Notes under the pieces: generated by a model
Seen by the model: the letters and a program-made list of their open reading frames with translations, nothing else
Told to the model about the DNA's origin: nothing
Databases searched by the model: none
Source of the DNA: [Enterobacter] lignolyticus SCF1
Lineage (GTDB): Bacteria; Pseudomonadota; Gammaproteobacteria; Enterobacterales; Enterobacteriaceae
Length of the DNA: 64,000 nucleotides
NCBI RefSeq assembly: GCF_000164865.1
Contig: NC_014618.1
Coordinates: 661,753 to 725,752, forward strand
Direction: 5' to 3'
Shown: in pieces, positions 1 through 34,586 of the stretch
Numbering within the stretch: the stretch's first letter is position 1
How the letters are laid out: each line of letters begins with the position of its first letter
Position numbers and translations under genes: made by a program

Positions 1-609
1 CAGGGTAAACCGTTTAACGTTCGCGACTCGAACCTGATTTTTAAAATCAGGATCGTGAAGTCGTTTATCGGCACCGTCACTATTCCCCAGCAGGTCATGT
101 TTAACGTGTATGTAACCACCCATAGCGGCGATCCGTTATCCACCGTGGTTTATCAGATTACCTACAGCGGCACGATTACCGTGCCGCAGAGCTGCGAAAT
201 CAACGCCGGGCAAACGGTGCTGGTGGATTTCGGAACGCTCTACAGCGGCGATTTCAAAAACGCCGGACAAAAGCCGGACGACGCGCCGGTAAAAACCTTC
301 AATGTGCCCATCCAGTGCAACGGCAGCATTAACTATCCCGCTAACCTGACGCTGCGCGTCCAGGCCACGGCGGACGCCCATTTTACCCAGGCCGTCGCCT
401 CGGATAACGCCGACGTTGGCGTGGTCATCGCCGACCCGGGCGGCAAGGTGCTAACGCCGAACGACCTCAACAGCAATATTCCATTTACCACCGATGCTTC
501 CGGGAAGGCGAACGTCAGCCTGCAGGCGTACCCCATCAGCACGACGGGGAAATCGCCCGCGGAAGGCGTCTTTACGGCGCTGGCGTTCCTGCGCGTCGAC
601 TTTGCGTAA
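1..609 (+). CDS. Fimbrial adhesin/tip-subunit-like protein, 5'-partial (C-terminal pilin-like domain)
   Basis: Frame 1 is open from nt 1 with no upstream stop; the listed GTG at 55 is probably internal. The translation is beta-rich and Thr/Val/Gly-rich, like the chaperone-usher subunits encoded immediately downstream. The real start lies outside the window. Confidence 0.5.
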   Translation, partial: QGKPFNVRDSNLIFKIRIVKSFIGTVTIPQQVMFNVYVTTHSGDPLSTVVYQITYSGTITVPQSCEINAGQTVLVDFGTLYSGDFKNAGQKPDDAPVKTFNVPIQCNGSINYPANLTLRVQATADAHFTQAVASDNADVGVVIADPGGKVLTPNDLNSNIPFTTDASGKANVSLQAYPISTTGKSPAEGVFTALAFLRVDFA

Positions 610-614
610 ATCAG

Positions 615-1157
615 GTGAAGATGATGAAAAGTTACGTCTTATCAGGTCTGTGGCTCTGCGGGGCGTTTGCGGCCCATGCCGATGACGGCAGCTATAACCT
701 GAAGCTTACCGGCACCATTGTGGCGGAAACCTGCAATGTGGATGCGTCAAGCGAGACGCAGACCGTCAGGCTCGGGCAGTTCTCCACCGCCGATTTCCCC
801 ACCGTCGGCTCGACCTCCCGGTCTGCGCCGCTGCCGATTACGCTGACGGGCTGTACGCAGAATATTACCGGAGGGCAGGTGTGGTTTACCGGCACCGCCG
901 ATAGCGACGACCCGTCGCTGCTGGCCCTTTCCGATACCGGAATGGGCGCCGACGCGCAGATGGCGACGGGCGTGGCGGTGCAGATCCTCGACGGCAGTCA
1001 GTCTCCGGTCAGTATCAATAACACCCATTCTGCGGTGTACCCGCTGCACGCGGGAGATAACGTCCTGACCTTCAACCTGCGCTACATGTCGACGAAAAGC
1101 CAGGTAACCGCCGGGAACGCCACCGCGGTGATGTACTTTGACCTTCAGTATCAGTAA
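615..1157 (+). CDS. Fimbrial (pilin) subunit
   Basis: 180 aa with an N-terminal signal peptide (MKMMKSYVLSGLWLCGAFAAHA), a Cys pair and a C-terminal beta-strand ending ..YFDLQYQ, typical of chaperone-usher pilins. It starts 6 nt after the preceding gene. Confidence 0.7.
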   Translation: MKMMKSYVLSGLWLCGAFAAHADDGSYNLKLTGTIVAETCNVDASSETQTVRLGQFSTADFPTVGSTSRSAPLPITLTGCTQNITGGQVWFTGTADSDDPSLLALSDTGMGADAQMATGVAVQILDGSQSPVSINNTHSAVYPLHAGDNVLTFNLRYMSTKSQVTAGNATAVMYFDLQYQ

Positions 1158-1166
1158 GGGGCCAGC

Positions 1167-1685
1167 ATGAAACGGTTTGCTTTAGCGGCTTGCGTAAGCC
1201 TGGCGATGATGGCGCAACCCCAGGCGCACCAGGGAACGGTGTACGTCACCGGCACGATTACCGATAACACCTGCGCCGTATCGCCGGATTCGAAAAACCT
1301 GACCGTGCCGATGGGCGATGTCTCCAGCAAGCAGTTTTCCCGGGCGGGCGACGGCTCGCGCTATGAGCCTTTCGTCATCAACCTTGAGAAATGCGGCGGC
1401 GCGGCCAGCGGCGTCACCGTTCATTTCGCAGGGACGTCAGACAGCAGGAATCCGGCGCTGCTGGCGCTGACCGGCGGCGCGGGGTATGCCGCCGGCGTTG
1501 GCGTGGGGATCTACAACCCGGATAAGTCGCTCATCCCGTTGGGCGCAGAGAGCGGCAATACGCCGATCTCGCCCAACCAGGCGACGGTCGCCCTGCACTT
1601 TTACGCCCGCTATATCGCCGATGGCGACAGCGTCGCCGCCGGTACCGCGAATGCTTCCGCCACGTTTGTCCTTACCTATGCGTGA
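1167..1685 (+). CDS. Fimbrial (pilin) subunit
   Basis: 172 aa with a signal peptide, a conserved Cys pair (TCAVS...KCGG) and a pilin-like C-terminus ..TFVLTYA. Confidence 0.7.
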   Translation: MKRFALAACVSLAMMAQPQAHQGTVYVTGTITDNTCAVSPDSKNLTVPMGDVSSKQFSRAGDGSRYEPFVINLEKCGGAASGVTVHFAGTSDSRNPALLALTGGAGYAAGVGVGIYNPDKSLIPLGAESGNTPISPNQATVALHFYARYIADGDSVAAGTANASATFVLTYA

Positions 1686-2403
1686 CCGCTCGCTGATTTT
1701 TCCGCTGCTGCTGTGCCTGGCGGGGGCGTTGCTGCTGTTCAGCGCGATAGTGCAGGCGGGGGTGGTGATCGGCGGCACCCGCTTTGTGTATGCCGGGGGG
1801 CAAAAATCGATAAGCGTTTCAGTACGCAACAAATCGCAGGCGCCGTTTCTGGTTAACGCCCGGGTGGCTACGGGCGGCGAGTGGCAGGGCGTGGCGCAGG
1901 CTGATGGCGGGGCCGCGCCGTTTGTCGTCACGCCGCCGCTGCTTGTTATCCAGCCGCAGCGGGAAAATATCATCCGGATTATCTATACCGGCGGGCCGCT
2001 GCCTGCGGATCGCGAAAGCCTGTTTACCCTCAGTATTGCCGCCATTCCCGCCAGTAAGGCGCAGGCCAACAGCGTGCAGCTGGCGGTGCGTTCGGCGCTG
2101 AAGCTGATTTATCGCCCGACCGGGCTTAAGGGGGATGCGGCGTCGGCGTACAGCAACCTGCGCTGGCGGCGGGACGGCGCGGCGCTGCGGGTCAGCAACC
2201 CGGGGCCGTATTACGTCACGCTGTTTCAGCTCAGCATCGCCGGGAAAAGCCTGGACAATGCGGGCGTCGTCGCGCCCTTCGGGGAGCGTCGCTTTAGCGG
2301 CTGTCCGTCTTCTCAGCCCTGCCGGATTCGCTGGCAGTCGATCAATGATTACGGCCGGGTTATGCCGCCGGCAGCCGCCTTACTTCAACCGTCAGGCCGC
2401 TGA
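1678..2403 (+). CDS. Periplasmic fimbrial chaperone (PapD-like)
   Basis: The ATG at 1678 overlaps the stop of the upstream pilin gene (ATGCGTGA). The N-terminus MRDRSLIFPLLLCLAGALLLFSAIVQAGVVIGGTRFVY is a signal peptide followed by the conserved chaperone motif (GTRxxY..., SVxNxS). The 1486-1677 extension in the ORF track is an unstopped reading frame, not coding. Confidence 0.75.
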   Translation: MRDRSLIFPLLLCLAGALLLFSAIVQAGVVIGGTRFVYAGGQKSISVSVRNKSQAPFLVNARVATGGEWQGVAQADGGAAPFVVTPPLLVIQPQRENIIRIIYTGGPLPADRESLFTLSIAAIPASKAQANSVQLAVRSALKLIYRPTGLKGDAASAYSNLRWRRDGAALRVSNPGPYYVTLFQLSIAGKSLDNAGVVAPFGERRFSGCPSSQPCRIRWQSINDYGRVMPPAAALLQPSGR

Positions 2404-2473
2404 TCGTGCAGCAGAGGTGACGCAGTCCGCATCGGCGGGCGAGCGCAGTACAGGAGGGGGTTCGGGAAAACAG

Positions 2474-2499
2474 ACCCTCTCCGGTGAAGGAGAGGGTCA
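2474..2499. terminator. Bidirectional intrinsic terminator hairpin between the fimbrial chaperone and patA
   Basis: A perfect 10-bp stem, GACCCTCTCC-ggtgaa-GGAGAGGGTC, lies between convergent gene ends (2403 and 2512). Confidence 0.5.
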
Positions 2500-2511
2500 G
2501 GTGAAGGCGTC

Positions 2512-3945
<1,434 letters not shown>

Positions 3946-28162: not shown

Positions 28163-28230
28163 GGGGCCACTCTTTAAGAACTTCATTTAGCCAGGTGCTC
28201 TCACCTTCGATGTGAGGGCGCCGATATCCT

Positions 28231-29409
28231 CGGGCCTGTACATAAATTTGTGTAATTACCTGATTTTGATATGTTCAATCCAACATCAAAAGCAGGTTAA
28301 TTTATGGACGAAAAACAGTTGCAGGCTCTGGCTAACGAACTGGCCAAAAATCTCAAAACCCCTGACGATCTCAGGCAGTTCGATCGCCTGCTCAAGAAAA
28401 TCAGCGTTGAGGCAGCTCTCAACGCTGAAATGTCCCACCACTTCGGCTACGATAAAAACCAGACCCGGATCACCGGCATGGATAACCAGATCCTGTCGCT
28501 GTACGCCAATGACCACCCGCGAGATAGCGGCTGCGTTCAAAGAGCTGTATGACGCTGATGTCTCACCGGTGCTGGTATCGAAAGTGACTGATGCCGTTAT
28601 GGAACAGGTAATCGAATGGCAAAACCGGCCACAGGATGCGGTGTACCCCATTGTTTATCTTGACTGTATCGTCCTGAAAGTCCGGCATGACAGTCGTGTT
28701 ATCAACAAATCTGTGCTCCTGGCGCTGGGCATCAACATCGAAGGCCAGAAAGAACTACTGGGTATGTGGCTGGCCGAAAACGAGGGCGCGAAGTTCTGGC
28801 TTAACGTACTGACAGAAATGAAAAATCGCGGACTAAACGATATCCTCATCGCCTGTGTTGACGGACTGAAAGGGTTCCCGGATGCTATTAACACAGTCTA
28901 TCCGGAGGCAAGGATCCAGCTGTGCATCGTGCATAGGGTGCGTAACAGCCTGCGGTTCGTCTCCTGGAAGGACTACAAAGCCGTCACCCGCGACCTGAAA
29001 GCCATCTATCAGGCTCCCACGGAAGAAGCAGGTCAGCAGGCTCTGGACGCGTTCGCCGCAGCCTGGGACAGCCGCTATCCACAGATAAGCCGCAGTTGGC
29101 AGTCGAACTGGGCCAACCTGGCGATGTTCTTCGCTTACCCGGCAGATGTCCGCAAAGTCATCTACACGACCAATGCCATCGAGTCGCTGAACAGCGTAAT
29201 CCGGCGTGCCAGCAAAAAGCGTAAGGTGTTCCCGACGGATGACTCAGTGAAAAAGGTTGTGTGGCTGGCAATCCAGGCGGCCTCACAGAAATGGACGATG
29301 CCGCTGCGGGACTGGCGTATGGCCATGAGCCGCTTTATTATCGAGTTCGGTGACCGCCTGGACGGCCACTTCTGAGAAAAGGCATTTACACAGGATCGTG
29401 TACAGGGTC
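28231..29409 (+). mobile_element. Degenerate IS256-family insertion sequence (about 1.18 kb; internal deletion and frameshift)
   Basis: The ends are imperfect terminal inverted repeats, GGGCCTGTACATAAATTTGTGTAA (28231-28254) and its partner at 29386-29409 (rc GACCCTGTACACGATCCTGTGTAA). They flank an IS256/mutator-family transposase reading frame. Confidence 0.7.
28304..29375 (+). pseudogene. IS256-family (mutator-type) transposase, disrupted
   Basis: The N-terminus MDEKQLQALANELAKNLKTPDDLRQF... and the C-terminal ~330 aa (MTTREIAAAFKELYDADVSPVLVSKVTD...CVDGLKGFPDAIN...TTNAIESLN...) match IS256-family transposases. They are split across two frames near 28510, and about 40 aa are missing between GYDK and NQTRIT relative to intact family members. 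Confidence 0.75.
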
Positions 29410-29415
29410 CGCCAT

Positions 29416-30201
29416 TTACGACATCACCGTCTGGTACAACAGTTTATTCAACGTATGGACATCATCTTCCCGGCTATCCGGCAGGATGGGCGGGATCTCG
29501 CCTCGCGCCAGTTCTGCACGGATAAACGCATGCAGTCGCGGACGACGCGGACCATATTCCGCTTCACCCGCCCGCCGTTTGTGTACCAGCAGTTCATCGA
29601 TCTCCTGACGCAGCGGCGCATCCAGTTCACTTCCCGCCAGCAGTTCAGCAAAGCGCATCGGCGGTACACCCTTACCCGCTTCCACCCAACGTACAGCCAG
29701 CAGCGGGCGCAGCACATAGAAGTATTTTTTCAACCGCACGTCCTCGCCCTGCAGGTAGCCGCGAAAGTTTTTCCGCGCCATCGAATAGTAGTGCCAGCGC
29801 GCACGAAGCGGTGAGAACCATTGCGGGACCAGCGCCTTCAGCGCCGCGACCGTCTTCTCTTCCTGCTGATAGACGACCGGCGAATCCAGCCACTCGATTA
29901 GCGTCGGGTTCGCCCCTTTCAACAACCCCAGGGCTTTGCGCCATTCCCAGCCACAGACGTCCAGTTCATCGTCTATGGGCAGTTCGATCACGTCCCGTGA
30001 CGCGTTTACCCGCAGATACCATTCCGGCGGATGGACGTATAAAAACCGCACATCGTAATCGCTATCCGGCGAGGCGAATCCCCAGCCGCGACTACCGGAT
30101 TCGCAGGCATACAGCACCCTGACGCCAAAGCGTTCCTCCACTTCTTTAAGCTGCCGCGATACCCGCTCGCGCATCGCGGCGCTGACTGCATTTCCGGTCA
30201 T
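29416..30201 (-). CDS. RtcB-associated predicted nucleotidyltransferase
   Basis: 261 aa with an N-terminal nucleotidyltransferase-fold motif (YACESGSRGWGFASPDSDYDVRFLY). It lies 4 nt downstream of rtcB in the same operon. Confidence 0.6.
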   Translation of the reverse strand: MTGNAVSAAMRERVSRQLKEVEERFGVRVLYACESGSRGWGFASPDSDYDVRFLYVHPPEWYLRVNASRDVIELPIDDELDVCGWEWRKALGLLKGANPTLIEWLDSPVVYQQEEKTVAALKALVPQWFSPLRARWHYYSMARKNFRGYLQGEDVRLKKYFYVLRPLLAVRWVEAGKGVPPMRFAELLAGSELDAPLRQEIDELLVHKRRAGEAEYGPRRPRLHAFIRAELARGEIPPILPDSREDDVHTLNKLLYQTVMS

Positions 30202-30205
30202 TTTT

Positions 30206-31432
30206 TTATCCTTTTACACACACGACCTGCCGCAAGGTGTGAACCACCTCCACCAGCGAAGCCTGCGCCGCCATAACGGCATCAATGTCTTTGTAAGCCA
30301 TCGGAATTTCATCGATCACCTCGCTGTCTTTCCGGCATTCAACATGGGCAGTTGCGCGGATGTGATCGGCCACGGTGAAACGTTTTTTGGCCGCTGTCCG
30401 GCTCATGGTTCTTCCGGCGCCATGACTACAGGAGCAGAAACTCTCTTCATTCCCCAGTCCGCGCACGATAAAACTTTTTGCCCCCATTGAACCGGGGATA
30501 ATCCCCATCTGGCCTTTCTGCGCCGAAACCGCGCCTTTACGCGTCACCAGCACCTCTTCGCCAAAATGGTGTTCTTTCTGGACATAGTTGTGATGGCAAT
30601 TCACCGCCTCTTGTTGGGTCATAAACGGTTTGCTGACGATACGTGACAGTGCCGCCAGCACGCGGGACATCATCACTTCCCGATTTTGCCGGGCGAAATC
30701 CTGCGCCCACTCCACCGCTTCAATGTAATCGTCATAATGACGACTCCCTTCCTGGAAATAGGCCAGGTTTCTGTCCGGCAGGTTCGCAATATGCTGCTGC
30801 ATATCCTGCTGCGCCAGCGTGATAAACACGTTCCCGATGGCATTCCCCACGCCACGGGAGCCGCTGTGCAGCATCACCCATACGCGTTGTTGTTCATCCA
30901 GGCACACCTCAATAAAGTGGTTGCCGGTTCCTAACGTTCCCAGATGCTGATGGTTATTGGTTTTCAGCAACTGCGGGTATTTATCGGTCAGGCGTTTAAA
31001 ACGCGGCGCCAGTTGCCCCCAGTGAGCACTCACTTCTTCCGGCGGTGTTTCCCATGCGCCTTTATCGCGACGGGAACGCGTATTGGTGCGCCCATGTGGC
31101 ACCGCCTGCTCAATCGCGCTACGCAGCCCGTTGAGGTTATCCGGCAAATCGCCAGCCAGGAGCGAGGTGCGCACGGCTATCATGCCGCAGCCAATATCCA
31201 CCCCTACCGCCGCAGGAATAATCGCCCCTTTGGTCGGGATAACGCTGCCAATGGTTGACCCTTTGCCGAGATGCACATCCGGCATCACTGCCAGATGTTT
31301 AAAAATAAACGGCATTTTCGCCGTATTCAGCAATTGCTGGCGCGCCTCAGGTTCCACAGGGACCCCGTGGGTCCACATTTTCACCGGCGCCGCGTTTTGC
31401 GACGCCAAAAGCTCATACTCGTTATGCGGCAT
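30206..31432 (-). CDS. rtcB: RNA-splicing ligase RtcB
   Basis: 408 aa, highly similar throughout to E. coli RtcB as I remember it (MPDVHLGKGSTIGSVIPTKGAIIPAAVGVDIGCGM, HNYVQKEQHFGEEV, GSMGAKSFIVRGLGNEESFCSCSHGAGR). Confidence 0.9.
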   Translation of the reverse strand: MPHNEYELLASQNAAPVKMWTHGVPVEPEARQQLLNTAKMPFIFKHLAVMPDVHLGKGSTIGSVIPTKGAIIPAAVGVDIGCGMIAVRTSLLAGDLPDNLNGLRSAIEQAVPHGRTNTRSRRDKGAWETPPEEVSAHWGQLAPRFKRLTDKYPQLLKTNNHQHLGTLGTGNHFIEVCLDEQQRVWVMLHSGSRGVGNAIGNVFITLAQQDMQQHIANLPDRNLAYFQEGSRHYDDYIEAVEWAQDFARQNREVMMSRVLAALSRIVSKPFMTQQEAVNCHHNYVQKEHHFGEEVLVTRKGAVSAQKGQMGIIPGSMGAKSFIVRGLGNEESFCSCSHGAGRTMSRTAAKKRFTVADHIRATAHVECRKDSEVIDEIPMAYKDIDAVMAAQASLVEVVHTLRQVVCVKG

Positions 31433-31436
31433 ACTC

Positions 31437-32564
31437 TTATCCTTTAATATTCACTAAGCCGTGCAGAACCTGGTCCAGACCACCGAATACCGATATTTTA
31501 TCGATACGTTCCGCCACTCTTTCGAGGGTTTCCAGCTCTTTTAAACGCAGCGCCACCGGATTGTTTTCCATCACTTTTGCGGTGTTCAACAGCGAACGCG
31601 TCGCCGCAGTCTCTTCACGTCGGCGGATCACGTTGGCCTGCGCCGATTTCTCCGCTTCAACCAGACGGGAGAGTATGGTTTTCATATCACCCGGCAACAC
31701 GATATCTTTCACCCCTAGCGAGGCCACCTCGATACCATAAGGCGTCATACGGTTTTTCACCTGTGCGCTCACCACGTCGTCAATGATCTGCTTATCTTCC
31801 AGCAATTCATCCAGGGTTCGCGTTCCGACGGCCTCACGCAGGGCAAACTGCAATTCACGGTAGAGGTGATCCAACGGTTTGGTGAGCTGCGCAAATGCCT
31901 GTAACACATCGCTATAGCGCCAGTTCGCCGCCAGATTCAGACGCAGATTGACCTTATCCTTGGTCAAAATCTCTTGCCCACCCACTTCCAGCACCTGTAA
32001 GCGGGTATCCACCACTTCCACGTCAACCAGATGATTGACCTTCCAGTACGCCGTCAGACCTGGCGGCAACAAAGCCTGCGTCTCGCCATCAATTTTCAGT
32101 ACACCCGCATGCCAGGCGGGAACCTGCACGGCGAGCATCGCATCACGGCCTTTTACGGCGCCACTGCGTCGTGGTTGCAGCACCGCATTCATCACCCCGG
32201 CAGGTACCTGAACCTGACGGGTATCCATTCGTACCAGTTTCAGCGCCTCGTCAGCCCGCCAGTACAAACGGCGTGTTGAGGGCGGTACGATCTCCTGCAA
32301 CACGTCGTTCATGTACAACGCACCCACTTCGGCATCGGTTAAATCCACTGCCAGGCTGTAACGCGCAACCCACTCAGGCTGAAAGCGACGTAAGTACTCT
32401 GCCAGCGTTTCCGGTACTTCACTGCCATCCAGATTAACGACGAGCACCTGCGGCGTGCTGAACCACGGCAGACGGTGTTCTCCGGCCTCCAGAACCTGAT
32501 AGTAGTCGCCATTTTTAGCCAGTAACCCTAACTGGCCTTTACGTATAGTGATTTTCTTAGCCAT
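31437..32564 (-). CDS. SPFH/band-7 (stomatin-prohibitin-like) domain protein encoded first in the rtcB operon
   Basis: 375 aa. Its central region is band-7-like (beta/alpha with a long helix ...ILSRLVEAEKSAQANVIRRREETAATRSLLNTAKVMENNP). It is immediately upstream of rtcB with a 4-nt spacer. Confidence 0.5.
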   Translation of the reverse strand: MAKKITIRKGQLGLLAKNGDYYQVLEAGEHRLPWFSTPQVLVVNLDGSEVPETLAEYLRRFQPEWVARYSLAVDLTDAEVGALYMNDVLQEIVPPSTRRLYWRADEALKLVRMDTRQVQVPAGVMNAVLQPRRSGAVKGRDAMLAVQVPAWHAGVLKIDGETQALLPPGLTAYWKVNHLVDVEVVDTRLQVLEVGGQEILTKDKVNLRLNLAANWRYSDVLQAFAQLTKPLDHLYRELQFALREAVGTRTLDELLEDKQIIDDVVSAQVKNRMTPYGIEVASLGVKDIVLPGDMKTILSRLVEAEKSAQANVIRRREETAATRSLLNTAKVMENNPVALRLKELETLERVAERIDKISVFGGLDQVLHGLVNIKG

Positions 32565-32873
32565 AACTTTTTTCCTTTTAAAAAATCAGATGCGGGTGCA
32601 GAGGCGAAGCCACAGGGGAATTCCTTTTTGCCTGCGACACGGCGACATTACCGGCTACCTGTCTTTGGGAGGTTAACCATCCAACACCCCGTTTTTACTT
32701 CTTTGATTAACAACCAGTTTCATTGGGAGTATGAATCGGGAATCGAACCCATTGTTCAGGTGTCATCGGTTGACGGAACACATCGGGAATACAGCCTGTG
32801 CCGTTCCTGAGGTGCCGGCGGGGTTCAACCCCCTGCGCTTTCAACGTATTGACAGAAAAGTTATTGCCAGAAG

Positions 32874-32890
32874 CGTGCCAGGAACAAAGA
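32874..32890 (-). promoter_or_regulatory. Sigma-54 (-24/-12) promoter for the SPFH-rtcB-nucleotidyltransferase operon
   Basis: The minus strand reads CTGGCACGCTTCTGGCA. Against TGGCACG-N4-TTGCW it has correct GG/GC spacing and one mismatch. It is divergent from rtcR, which encodes a sigma-54 activator, and about 300 nt upstream of the first operon gene. Confidence 0.6.
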
Positions 32891-33014
32891 TTTGCAAAAT
32901 AATTTACTATTTAATTGATTTATAATGAATTATTTTTTATCCGGAGATTAAGGATTGCGGCGCTGAGTAGATTTTTTTATCTTTATATATCGATATTTAT
33001 CCTGTGAGATAAAA

Positions 33015-34586
33015 ATGAAAAAACGGCGGGTGGTGATTGGCGTTCTGGGGACGGTGCTGGACAGGCGAGGCAAACGGACAAATCGCTTTAAAAAATGGCG
33101 GCCCACGGTCGGCCTGTGCCAACAACCAGATATGCCGGTCGATCGTCTGGAGCTCATCCATCAACCACACGATGCCGGGATGTGCCAGCAACTGATTGAG
33201 GACATCAATTTACTCTCACCGCAGACGGCAGTGCGTTCGCATGCCATTGCCATCTCAGACCCGTGGGATTTTGAAGAGGTCTACGCCGCATTTCTCGATT
33301 TCGCCACTCACTACGACTTTGATACCGAAAACGAAGAGTATCTGGTGCATATCACTACGGGGACTCACGTTGCGCAGATATGCTGGTTTCTGTTGACGGA
33401 AGCCCGCTATCTGCCAGCCAGCCTGTTGCAAACCGGCCCGGCCGTCAGGGGTGCCACGGAGGAGGCGATCCCTGTGGGTATCTGCTCGGTGATCGATCTC
33501 GATTTAAGCCGCTATACCACGCTCACCAGCCGCTTTCAGCGCGAACAGCAGCAGTCGGTTTCTTTTTTGAAAGCCGGTATTGATACGCGTAATGCCACGT
33601 TCAACAAGCTGATTGACCGTATAGAGCGCGTGGCGCTGCGTTCCGGCGATCCCATTCTGCTGACCGGTCCCACCGGGGCGGGTAAATCCTTCCTCGCCAG
33701 GCGTATTTACGAGCTTCGCCAGTCCCGGCACCTGGTTGCCGGAAAACTGGTCGCCGTAAACTGCGCCACTCTGCGCGGCGACAACGCCATGTCCACGCTG
33801 TTTGGTCATGTGAAAGGCGCTTTTACGGGGGCGCTGACACCCCGTAGCGGTCTTTTACGTGAAGCCGATGGCGGCGTGTTATTTCTCGACGAGATCGCCG
33901 AACTGGGGCTGGATGAACAGGCGATGTTGCTGAAAGCGATTGAGGAAAAAACCTTTTTCCCGTTCGGTTCGGATAAAGAAGTTCACAGCGATTTCCAGTT
34001 GATTGCGGGAACCCACCGCGATATGCCGCAGTGGGTCGCAGAGGGGCGTTTTCGTGAAGATCTCTATGCCCGTATTAACATGTGGAGTTTTGCCCTGCCC
34101 GGACTTGCGCAGCGACGGGAAGATATTGCCCCCAACGTGGAGTTTGAACTTCAGCGTTTTTCCAGCAGTCAGCAGACCCAGATTCGTTTCGATAAAGAGG
34201 CGCGTGAACGCTATCTGACGTTTGCCTGTTCAGCGCAGTCGCAGTGGCGCGGTAACTTCCGCGAGCTGGGTTCATCCGTTGCCCGCATGGCAACGCTGGC
34301 CGAACAGGGACGCATCACGACAGACCTTGTTGACGAAGAAATTGCCTTACTGAAGGCGAGCTGGCAGGTCACGCCATCGCAACCAGCACTGGAGATGGAG
34401 ATTGACCTTTTCGATCGCCGCCAACTGGAAACCGTGCTTGAAGTGTGTCGTCGTAGCACGTCATTGTCGGAAGCCGGTCGTGAACTGTTCGCGGTTTCCC
34501 GTCAGAAGAAAACCAATCCCAACGATGCAGATCGCTTACGTAAGTACCTGGCGCGTTTTGGAATGCGCTGGGAAAATCTCAAATAA
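33015..34586 (+). CDS. rtcR: Sigma-54-dependent transcriptional activator RtcR (CARF-like N-domain, AAA+ domain, HTH)
   Basis: 523 aa, similar to E. coli RtcR as I remember it (GPTGAGKSFLARRIYELRQ, ESELFGH-like GAFTGA, C-terminal HTH). It is divergent from the rtcB operon. Confidence 0.9.
   Translation: MKKRRVVIGVLGTVLDRRGKRTNRFKKWRPTVGLCQQPDMPVDRLELIHQPHDAGMCQQLIEDINLLSPQTAVRSHAIAISDPWDFEEVYAAFLDFATHYDFDTENEEYLVHITTGTHVAQICWFLLTEARYLPASLLQTGPAVRGATEEAIPVGICSVIDLDLSRYTTLTSRFQREQQQSVSFLKAGIDTRNATFNKLIDRIERVALRSGDPILLTGPTGAGKSFLARRIYELRQSRHLVAGKLVAVNCATLRGDNAMSTLFGHVKGAFTGALTPRSGLLREADGGVLFLDEIAELGLDEQAMLLKAIEEKTFFPFGSDKEVHSDFQLIAGTHRDMPQWVAEGRFREDLYARINMWSFALPGLAQRREDIAPNVEFELQRFSSSQQTQIRFDKEARERYLTFACSAQSQWRGNFRELGSSVARMATLAEQGRITTDLVDEEIALLKASWQVTPSQPALEMEIDLFDRRQLETVLEVCRRSTSLSEAGRELFAVSRQKKTNPNDADRLRKYLARFGMRWENLK

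Follow-up and report, generated by a model that had tools for sequence, protein, structure and literature searches.

A conserved structured RNA with an invariant tRNA-like T-loop in the leader of a slipin-rtcB-rlaP operon of [Enterobacter] lignolyticus

What lies in the long leader of an RNA-repair operon whose promoter sits almost 300 nt ahead of its first gene? The locus belongs to a 64,000-nt stretch of [Enterobacter] lignolyticus SCF1 (NC_014618.1, positions 661,753 to 725,752; the whole stretch is called the window below), where a minus-strand operon for the Band-7 protein slipin, the RNA ligase RtcB and RlaP is preceded by a leader that contains a motif resembling the T-arm of a transfer RNA (tRNA). 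A first-pass annotation, made from the sequence alone, had proposed a noncoding RNA here, analogous to the Y RNA YrlA. We found that the leader is a structured RNA of several domains, conserved, specific to one strand and non-coding, whose T-loop is invariant. Its organization and a series of intermediates in other bacteria indicate that it is homologous to tRNA-like elements upstream of slipin genes. It appears to be a reduced, partly permuted variant of a predicted RNA class, set between two structured domains that match no Rfam family.

The motif itself is the following feature.

32736..32752, minus strand: tRNA T-arm mimic, with a 4-bp stem (one U-G and three G-C pairs) and the 7-nt T-loop UUCGAUU (32747-32741)

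Its core at 32750-32738 on the minus strand, GGGUUCGAUUCCC, is that of a canonical T-arm with a 7-nt loop. These 13 nt, GGGTTCGATTCCC, hold all of the invariant T-arm bases (G53, U54, U55, C56, R57, A58 and C61) and are exactly the ones that Rfam aligns to the T-arm of transfer-messenger RNA (tmRNA). The near-consensus T-stem-loop announced for 32735-32760 is thus borne out within that interval. GGTTCGATTCC, the exact 11-mer, has a single occurrence in the 64 kb of the window. Of 41 enterobacterial loci, 40 have the pattern GGNTCRANNCC in the 520 nt before slipin, as against 0.026 occurrences per 520 nt elsewhere in those loci, and it is found on the same strand, at most 520 nt upstream of slipin, in nearly all of the 80 loci that we fetched by their slipin relatives (92-45% identity, Enterobacterales to Burkholderiales). 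When 24 enterobacterial leaders were aligned from the -12 element to the ATG, the G-C pairs of the T-stem and the loop were unchanged in all 24, and the outermost stem pair covaried (GC 20 / AU 4).

The same alignment shows that the T-arm is embedded in a larger structure. RNAalifold predicted 38 pairs, 25 of them with compensatory changes. In a curated 48-pair structure, 90% of pair cells were paired, compared with 38-52% when partners were slid by 1-3 columns. Double changes were seen in 30 of the 48 pairs (4-13 in the slid controls), the covariation score was 0.37 (about 0.1 in controls), and none of 500 shuffles reached the observed pairing and covariation values. Many of the pairs are G-U, which makes the structure specific for the operon strand, and the matches of both covariance models described below, R1 and R2, are likewise specific for that strand. 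Folding the leader had been suggested as a check; single-sequence folding was uninformative, so we argue the structure from covariation, and that comparative evidence extends over the whole leader. Poor conservation among species with the same operon had been named as a possible refutation, and the leader proved to be conserved. The expectation of a discrete species of roughly 100 nt was not supported by the sequence, as conservation and covariation span about 290 nt and there is no internal promoter or terminator; a scan of the operon strand of the leader for terminators and sigma-70 promoters found neither. A 45-aa open reading frame with a TTG start (32707-32844, minus strand) overlaps domain A and the T-arm. 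It is fortuitous and the region is non-coding, because stop codons interrupt that frame in relatives.

From 5' to 3', the elements around the T-arm are as follows.

32766..32852, minus strand: domain A, a 5' three-way junction made of closing helix P0, hairpin P1, helix P2 and apical hairpin H2
32845-32841 with 32773-32769, minus strand: P0, 96% paired, with compensatory changes
32836-32818, minus strand: P1 hairpin, 93% paired, with compensatory changes
32817-32812 with 32781-32774, minus strand: P2, with a UU bulge, 97% paired, with compensatory changes (24 leaders)
32807-32786, minus strand: H2 hairpin, only 65% paired in the MAFFT register and checked by eye
32719..32735, minus strand: capped hairpin (UUCAU-ACUCCCA-AUGAA), acceptor-stem-like and closed by a loop, directly continuing the 3' strand of the T-stem
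32705..32718, minus strand: conserved single-stranded or stem-forming segment ACUGGUUGUUAAUC, which includes ACUGGUUGU (32718-32710)
32667..32690, minus strand: middle hairpin GGGGUGUUGG-AUGG-UUAACCUCCC, -6.5 kcal/mol when folded alone
32582..32665, minus strand: domain B, a long irregular hairpin of three helices with 19 pairs, 15 of them with compensatory changes, 96-97% paired
32659-32650 with 32597-32588, 32643-32642 with 32605-32604, and 32638-32627 with 32620-32609, minus strand: the three helices of domain B

Within domain A, a GGAACG/CGUUCC pairing proposed by RNAalifold was rejected because A-U/G-C covariation at 77:112 and a compensatory change in Klebsiella oxytoca favor P2 together with H2. 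P1 corresponds to the second hairpin reported at 32819-32833. The hairpin is a real covarying helix; it is not, however, a T-loop, since the motif given for it, GGGGTTCAACCCC, belongs to the plus strand, the RNA itself has GGGGUUGAACCCC, and relatives differ freely in the loop. A weak plus-strand hit to the mascRNA/tRNA-like Rfam model at 32762-32842 (19 bits, E 0.43) was also set aside. It corresponds to domain A seen in antisense, P1 being taken for a T-arm, and the G-U pairs and strand-specific model hits argue for the minus strand as the functional one.

The capped hairpin is 89% paired, with one pair alternating between UA (8) and CG (4), and among its stem variants in relatives are UUCAU/AUGAA, UUCAC/GUGAA, UCACC/GGUGA and UUUCAU/AUGAAA. 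Immediately downstream, ACUGGUUGU is nearly invariant across the clade to which the window belongs. Pairing of ACUGGUUGUUAAUC with GAUGACACC (32767-32759) may close a three-way junction around the T-arm and the capped hairpin; alternatively, the GG of ACUGGUUGUUAAUC may act as a D-loop analogue. This closing stem is part of the minimum-free-energy fold in 5 of 7 homologues, and we keep it tentative because its covariation is weak. At the position of the middle hairpin, relatives have a hairpin with other stems, such as GGAGC/GCUCC or GGGGC/CCCC (read by eye, not counted formally). The 3' end of domain B lies about 10 nt ahead of the Shine-Dalgarno GGA (32575-32573). The apical region of domain B (loop 32622-32626, minus strand) holds AAAGGAAUUCC, with a Shine-Dalgarno-like AAGGA and the palindrome GGAAUUCC, and in longer relatives an extra hairpin is inserted there.

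A sequence-only nhmmer profile of the leader reached the Morganellaceae and not the Betaproteobacteria, so covariance models were needed to follow it further. Model R1, built on domain A, scored 70.8 bits in the window (E 7e-15), its only hit in those 64 kb. Most of the 81 loci had one same-strand R1 match upstream of slipin, out to the Betaproteobacteria, and 66 hits had E<0.01, including beta- and gammaproteobacterial loci outside the seed. On the R1 hits, P2 is 93% paired, and one of its pairs is CG in 49 and UA in 24 sequences, across Gamma- and Betaproteobacteria. Model R2, built on domain B from leaders of Enterobacteriaceae, Erwiniaceae, Pectobacteriaceae and Hafniaceae, scored 79 bits in the window and also found the non-seed leaders of Providencia, Proteus, Xenorhabdus, Gilliamella and Orbus, just before slipin.

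Upstream of slipin, at a distance of about 270-450 nt, ARAGORN and Rfam recognize tRNAs in betaproteobacterial loci and in some gammaproteobacterial ones, one or two per locus. Their anticodons are variable or odd, their acceptor stems are often short, and some of these tRNAs are complete with an encoded CCA. The betaproteobacterial elements score 38-72 bits, compared with an Rfam gathering score for tRNA of 29. These tRNA-like elements lie directly downstream of the R1 match, and the signature of domain A stands upstream of them: the P1 hairpin, then CYGGYRC ... GYRUNCCG with covarying partners. Together, the R1 and R2 matches define a conserved frame of promoter, domain A, tRNA-like part, 3' domain and slipin, in which the middle part varies. 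Slipin follows the RNA in all 81 loci; RtcB, RlaP and RtcR accompany it in most enterobacterial loci, not in all.

The variation in the middle part connects the window to complete tRNAs. Most Enterobacterales, with Erwinia, Brenneria, Lonsdalea, Hafnia, Proteus, Providencia, Xenorhabdus and others, have a mini tRNA, consisting of a 4-8-bp acceptor-like stem, a 10-16-nt linker with GGUU, and a 5-bp T-arm, often with (C)ACC. Its acceptor-like stems covary in 22 loci (GCGAA/UUCGC, GCAAA/UUUGC, UGAUA/UAUCG, GAUG/CAUC, GGUG/CACC, UCGGAU/GUCCGA). The first element in Undibacterium and other Betaproteobacteria follows the mini-tRNA design too, with the 3' end ACCA. In the clade of the window (Citrobacter, Klebsiella, Enterobacter, Phytobacter, Yokenella and Escherichia coli), the 5' acceptor strand and the linker are gone, and the 3' acceptor strand pairs downstream into the capped hairpin, followed by AC and UGGUUGU. 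In Superficieibacter (locus L013, about 3762-3884), UUCGC(C) beside the T-arm has both an upstream GCGAA and a downstream GGUGAA as partners; this leader may stand midway between the two architectures or act as a switch.

Escherichia coli loci of the IAI39 type have the leader, slipin and RlaP and keep the sigma-54 promoter, with no adjacent rtcB or rtcR. A leader of this type, with 74% identity over 290 nt, occurs in 1632 of 5426 complete E. coli genomes (about 30%) and is unannotated in RefSeq. The IAI39 copy (L001, NC_011750.1 4622950-4625190) is located between yjbD and P2-like prophage tail genes. A phage origin was rejected, since neither the RNA nor slipin matched anything among 50,697 phage records. 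Some loci of uncultured Burkholderiales and Gammaproteobacteria have an array of 9-25 tRNA genes directly upstream of the unit of domain A, tRNA-like part and slipin, on the same strand as that unit, and they lack RtcB and RtcR beside slipin.

~300-3500 of each locus, in L054, L061, L064, L065, L067, L071, L073, L079, L080 and L081: tRNA arrays

These homologues place the leader close to a class that has been predicted before. According to the description in Wang et al. 2018 (bioRxiv 10.1101/312249), Burroughs and Aravind (Nucleic Acids Res 2016) predicted an RNA called b7a-tRNA beside Band-7 and RtcB genes, strongly resembling tRNA, apparently interchangeable or redundant with YrlA, and not validated. 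We found no later literature characterizing it, and Rfam 15 gave no b7a-tRNA-like match. As far as that description goes, the likeness is that of a non-coding tRNA-like element which adjoins a Band-7/SPFH gene and RtcB among genes for RNA repair, and here the RNA is adjacent to slipin on the same strand in all 81 loci. Strong resemblance to an authentic tRNA cloverleaf was not found in the window, where only the T-arm is canonical; it was found in the betaproteobacterial homologues, which pass the Rfam tRNA threshold at the equivalent position. Positional and evolutionary equivalence is seen in R1 matches upstream of either tRNA-like elements or the T-arm, with mini tRNAs as intermediates. The leader differs from b7a-tRNA as described in that source by keeping only the T-arm and the capped hairpin, which tRNA models do not detect, and its tRNA-like part is embedded between domains A and B, inside an mRNA leader. 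Because domain A precedes Rfam-passing tRNA elements in the Betaproteobacteria, the leader can be read as a degenerate form of the b7a-tRNA locus.

Direct searches of the window for known families were largely negative. At the gathering threshold, Rfam assigned no family. At E<=10, the 4227 models run on 32400-33100 returned the 13-nt tmRNA T-arm fragment, the plus-strand mascRNA-like hit and noise, and no tRNA or Y RNA, although we did not confirm that a YrlA model was among them. The Rfam search that the first-pass annotation had recommended thus returned no YrlA, Y RNA or tRNA match, subject to that limit. With the same cutoff, tRNA and Y RNA hits were also lacking from the leaders in seven enterobacterial loci. 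ARAGORN called no tRNA in the window, and the window element lacks the four-arm cloverleaf, 7-bp acceptor stem and anticodon loop of a canonical tRNA.

The genes and promoter around the leader set the context for its function.

32865..32880, minus strand: sigma-54 (-24/-12) promoter TGGCACGCTTCTGGCA, as read from the sequence
31437..32564, minus strand: slipin (SPFH/Band-7) gene, 375 aa, the first gene of the operon (Pfam Band_7 over residues 147-318)
30206..31432, minus strand: RtcB RNA ligase gene (Pfam RtcB, E 1.8e-132)
29416..30201, minus strand: RlaP (PF10127) nucleotidyltransferase gene (Pfam RlaP, E 2.4e-95)
33015..34586, plus strand: divergent gene for RtcR, a CARF-AAA+ sigma-54 activator (Pfam RtcR and Sigma54_activat; NCBIfam RNA_repair_RtcR, 812 bits)

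Measured against TGGCACG-N4-TTGCW, TGGCACGCTTCTGGCA (32880-32865) has one mismatch, and in the locus comparison a sigma-54 element stands at the same position in all enterobacterial and several betaproteobacterial loci. A sigma-54 promoter upstream of the operon had been predicted at 32874-32890; the promoter holds, about 10 nt away from that position and half overlapping it. From its placement, transcription probably starts near 32854, which gives a leader of about 290 nt up to the slipin ATG at 32564, close to the 300 nt first estimated. The operon is not led by rtcB: Band-7/slipin comes first, then rtcB and rlaP. By Pfam, the operon genes include neither rtcA nor Ro60/rsr, and the absence of rsr from the operon agrees with the earlier claim; no screen for a TROVE protein covered the remainder of the window. 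Directly past the RlaP stop codon lies a transposase gene of the Mutator family (IS256-like; 28212-29375, plus strand). The only match in the PADLOC defense-system library was RtcR. Slipin has 100% identity to a protein of [Enterobacter] lignolyticus. The SPFH and coiled-coil part of slipin has relatives in the PDB (stomatin, QmcA and HflK/C) that were deposited as large multi-chain assemblies. Residues 1 to about 150 (window 32115-32564, minus strand) had no Pfam or PDB sequence match, with nothing before residue 153. Stomatin-type proteins have an N-terminal membrane segment; slipin has this region of about 150 aa in that place.

What might such an RNA do? On balance, we favor the reading that the leader is a dedicated structured noncoding RNA, a reduced enterobacterial homologue of b7a-tRNA that is transcribed from the RtcR/sigma-54 promoter as the 5' part of the slipin-rtcB-rlaP transcript. 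Its most likely role is that of an RNA partner of slipin in RNA repair. Damaged tRNA would activate RtcR, and the RNA and the operon proteins would then be made together. The RNA, presenting the elbow and top half of a tRNA, would bind oligomeric slipin, either as part of the mRNA or after processing, and the complex would serve as an adaptor or scaffold that brings RtcB (the ligase) and RlaP (for 3' nucleotide addition) to their substrates or holds them there. The pairing of RNA and slipin would be the counterpart of Y RNA with Ro60. Several published observations fit around these steps. tRNA 5' fragments that carry a terminal 2',3'-cyclic phosphate activate RtcR (PMC7790460). RlaP extends the 3' ends of damaged RNA by 1-2 nucleotides and is able to restore aminoacylation to tRNA that was trimmed too far (PMC12776372). 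In Anabaena, a tRNA array, rtcB and slipin share one repressor and are co-regulated under translation stress (PMC10272220), and the rtc locus of Pseudomonas aeruginosa contains slipin.

Several points weigh against this proposal. The literature that we found holds no expression, processing or binding data for the leader RNA in any organism. Folded singly, the leader is no more stable than its shuffles (z-score 0.13), and the closing stem of the T-module covaries weakly (69% paired). The window element is not a tRNA by any model (Rfam or ARAGORN), and the b7a-tRNA definition that we matched is the secondary one of Wang et al. (2018), not that of the 2016 paper. The AlphaFold model of slipin, from a shallow alignment, had a predicted local distance difference test score (pLDDT) of 38; it was unusable and gives no support for N-terminal RNA binding. 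Finally, a position directly before the ribosome-binding site fits a cis-acting leader equally well.

That last point leads to the main rival, which we regard as unlikely overall: a cis-regulatory 5' untranslated region that senses damaged or uncharged tRNA, a tRNA-binding protein or the operon proteins and tunes slipin-rtcB-rlaP translation or stability, with the T-loop used for docking, the way T-box leaders and RNase P use theirs. It would account well for an RNA that is always the same-strand untranslated region of slipin, has no promoter or terminator of its own, ends in a domain so close to the Shine-Dalgarno sequence, and is conserved over its whole 290 nt and not as a discrete unit of about 100 nt. 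Retention of the leader in E. coli together with slipin, RlaP and the sigma-54 promoter, without an adjacent rtcR, points the same way. Yet the machinery expected of such a leader was not found. There is no conserved terminator/antiterminator pair, no helix sequestering the Shine-Dalgarno sequence and no T-box specifier/antiterminator architecture; the leader has no terminator-like site, no hit to a riboswitch or other Rfam cis-regulatory family and no conserved U-tract, the U-run past domain B in the window not being conserved. Also against it, betaproteobacterial homologues embed complete tRNAs, some with an encoded CCA, that one would expect RNase P and 3' processing to cut out, and array-bearing loci place the RNA in line with tRNA genes.

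A more ambitious version of the favored RNA-slipin partnership, which we consider doubtful, makes the leader more than a tRNA decoy. Its three domains, of which the 5' three-way junction and the 3' domain are new and the middle one mimics the top half of a tRNA, would combine with a cytoplasmic slipin (SPFH) oligomer into a vault-like ribonucleoprotein, a compartment or platform where tRNA is repaired and its quality controlled. Enzymes that handle tRNA would be recruited by the T-loop as a handle, and in other Proteobacteria this particle would cooperate with 'spare' tRNA arrays.

It is very improbable that the RNA is a true YrlA or other Y RNA that binds Ro60, with its partner Rsr encoded elsewhere. 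The order of T-arm and then capped hairpin is that of YrlA, the operon is RtcR-controlled as in Salmonella, and Burroughs and Aravind reportedly saw occasional YrlA beside Band-7 genes. However, the search at E<=10 gave no hit to a Y RNA or to the tRNA clan (with the YrlA model's presence in the library unconfirmed), and in all 81 loci the RNA goes with slipin and not with Rsr. Of the features of the YrlA tRNA-like domain, the T stem-loop and capped hairpin occur in the right order, and the D position offers only the ACUGGUUGU segment. In place of a long terminal stem there is a short closing stem with weak support, and a covariance-model match was not obtained, under the same reservation about the library. 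Sister clades, moreover, carry the non-permuted mini-tRNA form. A selectively maintained tRNA mimic in an RtcR-controlled operon lacking Ro60 is therefore what remains of the YrlA analogy in the first-pass annotation, and membership among the Y RNAs is not. A decayed tRNA gene or integration-site remnant without a function of its own, or a chance motif, might explain why only a T-arm that tRNA finders do not recognize survives in the window and why the E. coli copy adjoins prophage genes, and is excluded by the pattern of conservation: a T-loop invariant across families and orders while the flanking helices change by compensatory substitutions, a motif far above background at a fixed place between two covarying domains, and loci that are not recent horizontal copies of one sequence, as slipin identity drops as low as 45-60% within the set.

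RtcB repair operons occur widely, and this locus may bear on how their substrates are chosen and on the role of accessory proteins such as Band-7. A covarying RNA of about 290 nt without an Rfam family, unannotated in E. coli in RefSeq and present also in Citrobacter, Klebsiella, Enterobacter, Proteus and Providencia, is a concrete object for experiments. It makes the eight-year-old proposal of a particle of Band-7 protein and tRNA-like RNA, the counterpart of Ro60 and Y RNA, testable in genetically easy hosts. The reduced form marks the T-loop as the indispensable part of the tRNA mimicry, and the large tRNA arrays of other lineages hint at a connection to backup tRNA and repair.

Known systems offer comparisons of different depth. 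The vault particle combines the major vault protein, which has an SPFH-like shoulder domain, with vault RNA. The resemblance, an SPFH-type protein (in the case of slipin a putative oligomer) beside a small structured RNA, is one of analogy only and implies no homology between the RNAs. With tmRNA, mascRNA and MALAT1-type RNAs, the leader shares the mimicry of the acceptor/T-arm top half with the anticodon arm reduced or absent, a design also seen in the mini tRNA of sister Enterobacterales. In contrast to a member of those families, it matches their models partially and far below threshold (tmRNA 9 bits; mascRNA 19 bits, on the wrong strand), and it has no mRNA-like domain as tmRNA does. YrlA (Chen et al. 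2014; PDB 6cu1) is likewise a tRNA mimic in an RtcR-regulated RNA-repair operon, with a conserved T-loop and no free CCA end. Its order is T stem-loop, capped acceptor stem, UA and D stem-loop, and that of the window's clade is T-arm, capped hairpin, linker dinucleotide and GG segment. YrlA is a free-standing gene after a protein gene, whereas the window element is part of the ~290-nt leader, has slipin and not Ro60/Rsr as its partner gene (the operon being slipin, RtcB and RlaP), and shows neither a D stem-loop nor a recognizable Ro-binding helix. By analogy, the tRNA mimic of this operon plausibly plays, beside slipin, the part that YrlA plays beside Rsr.

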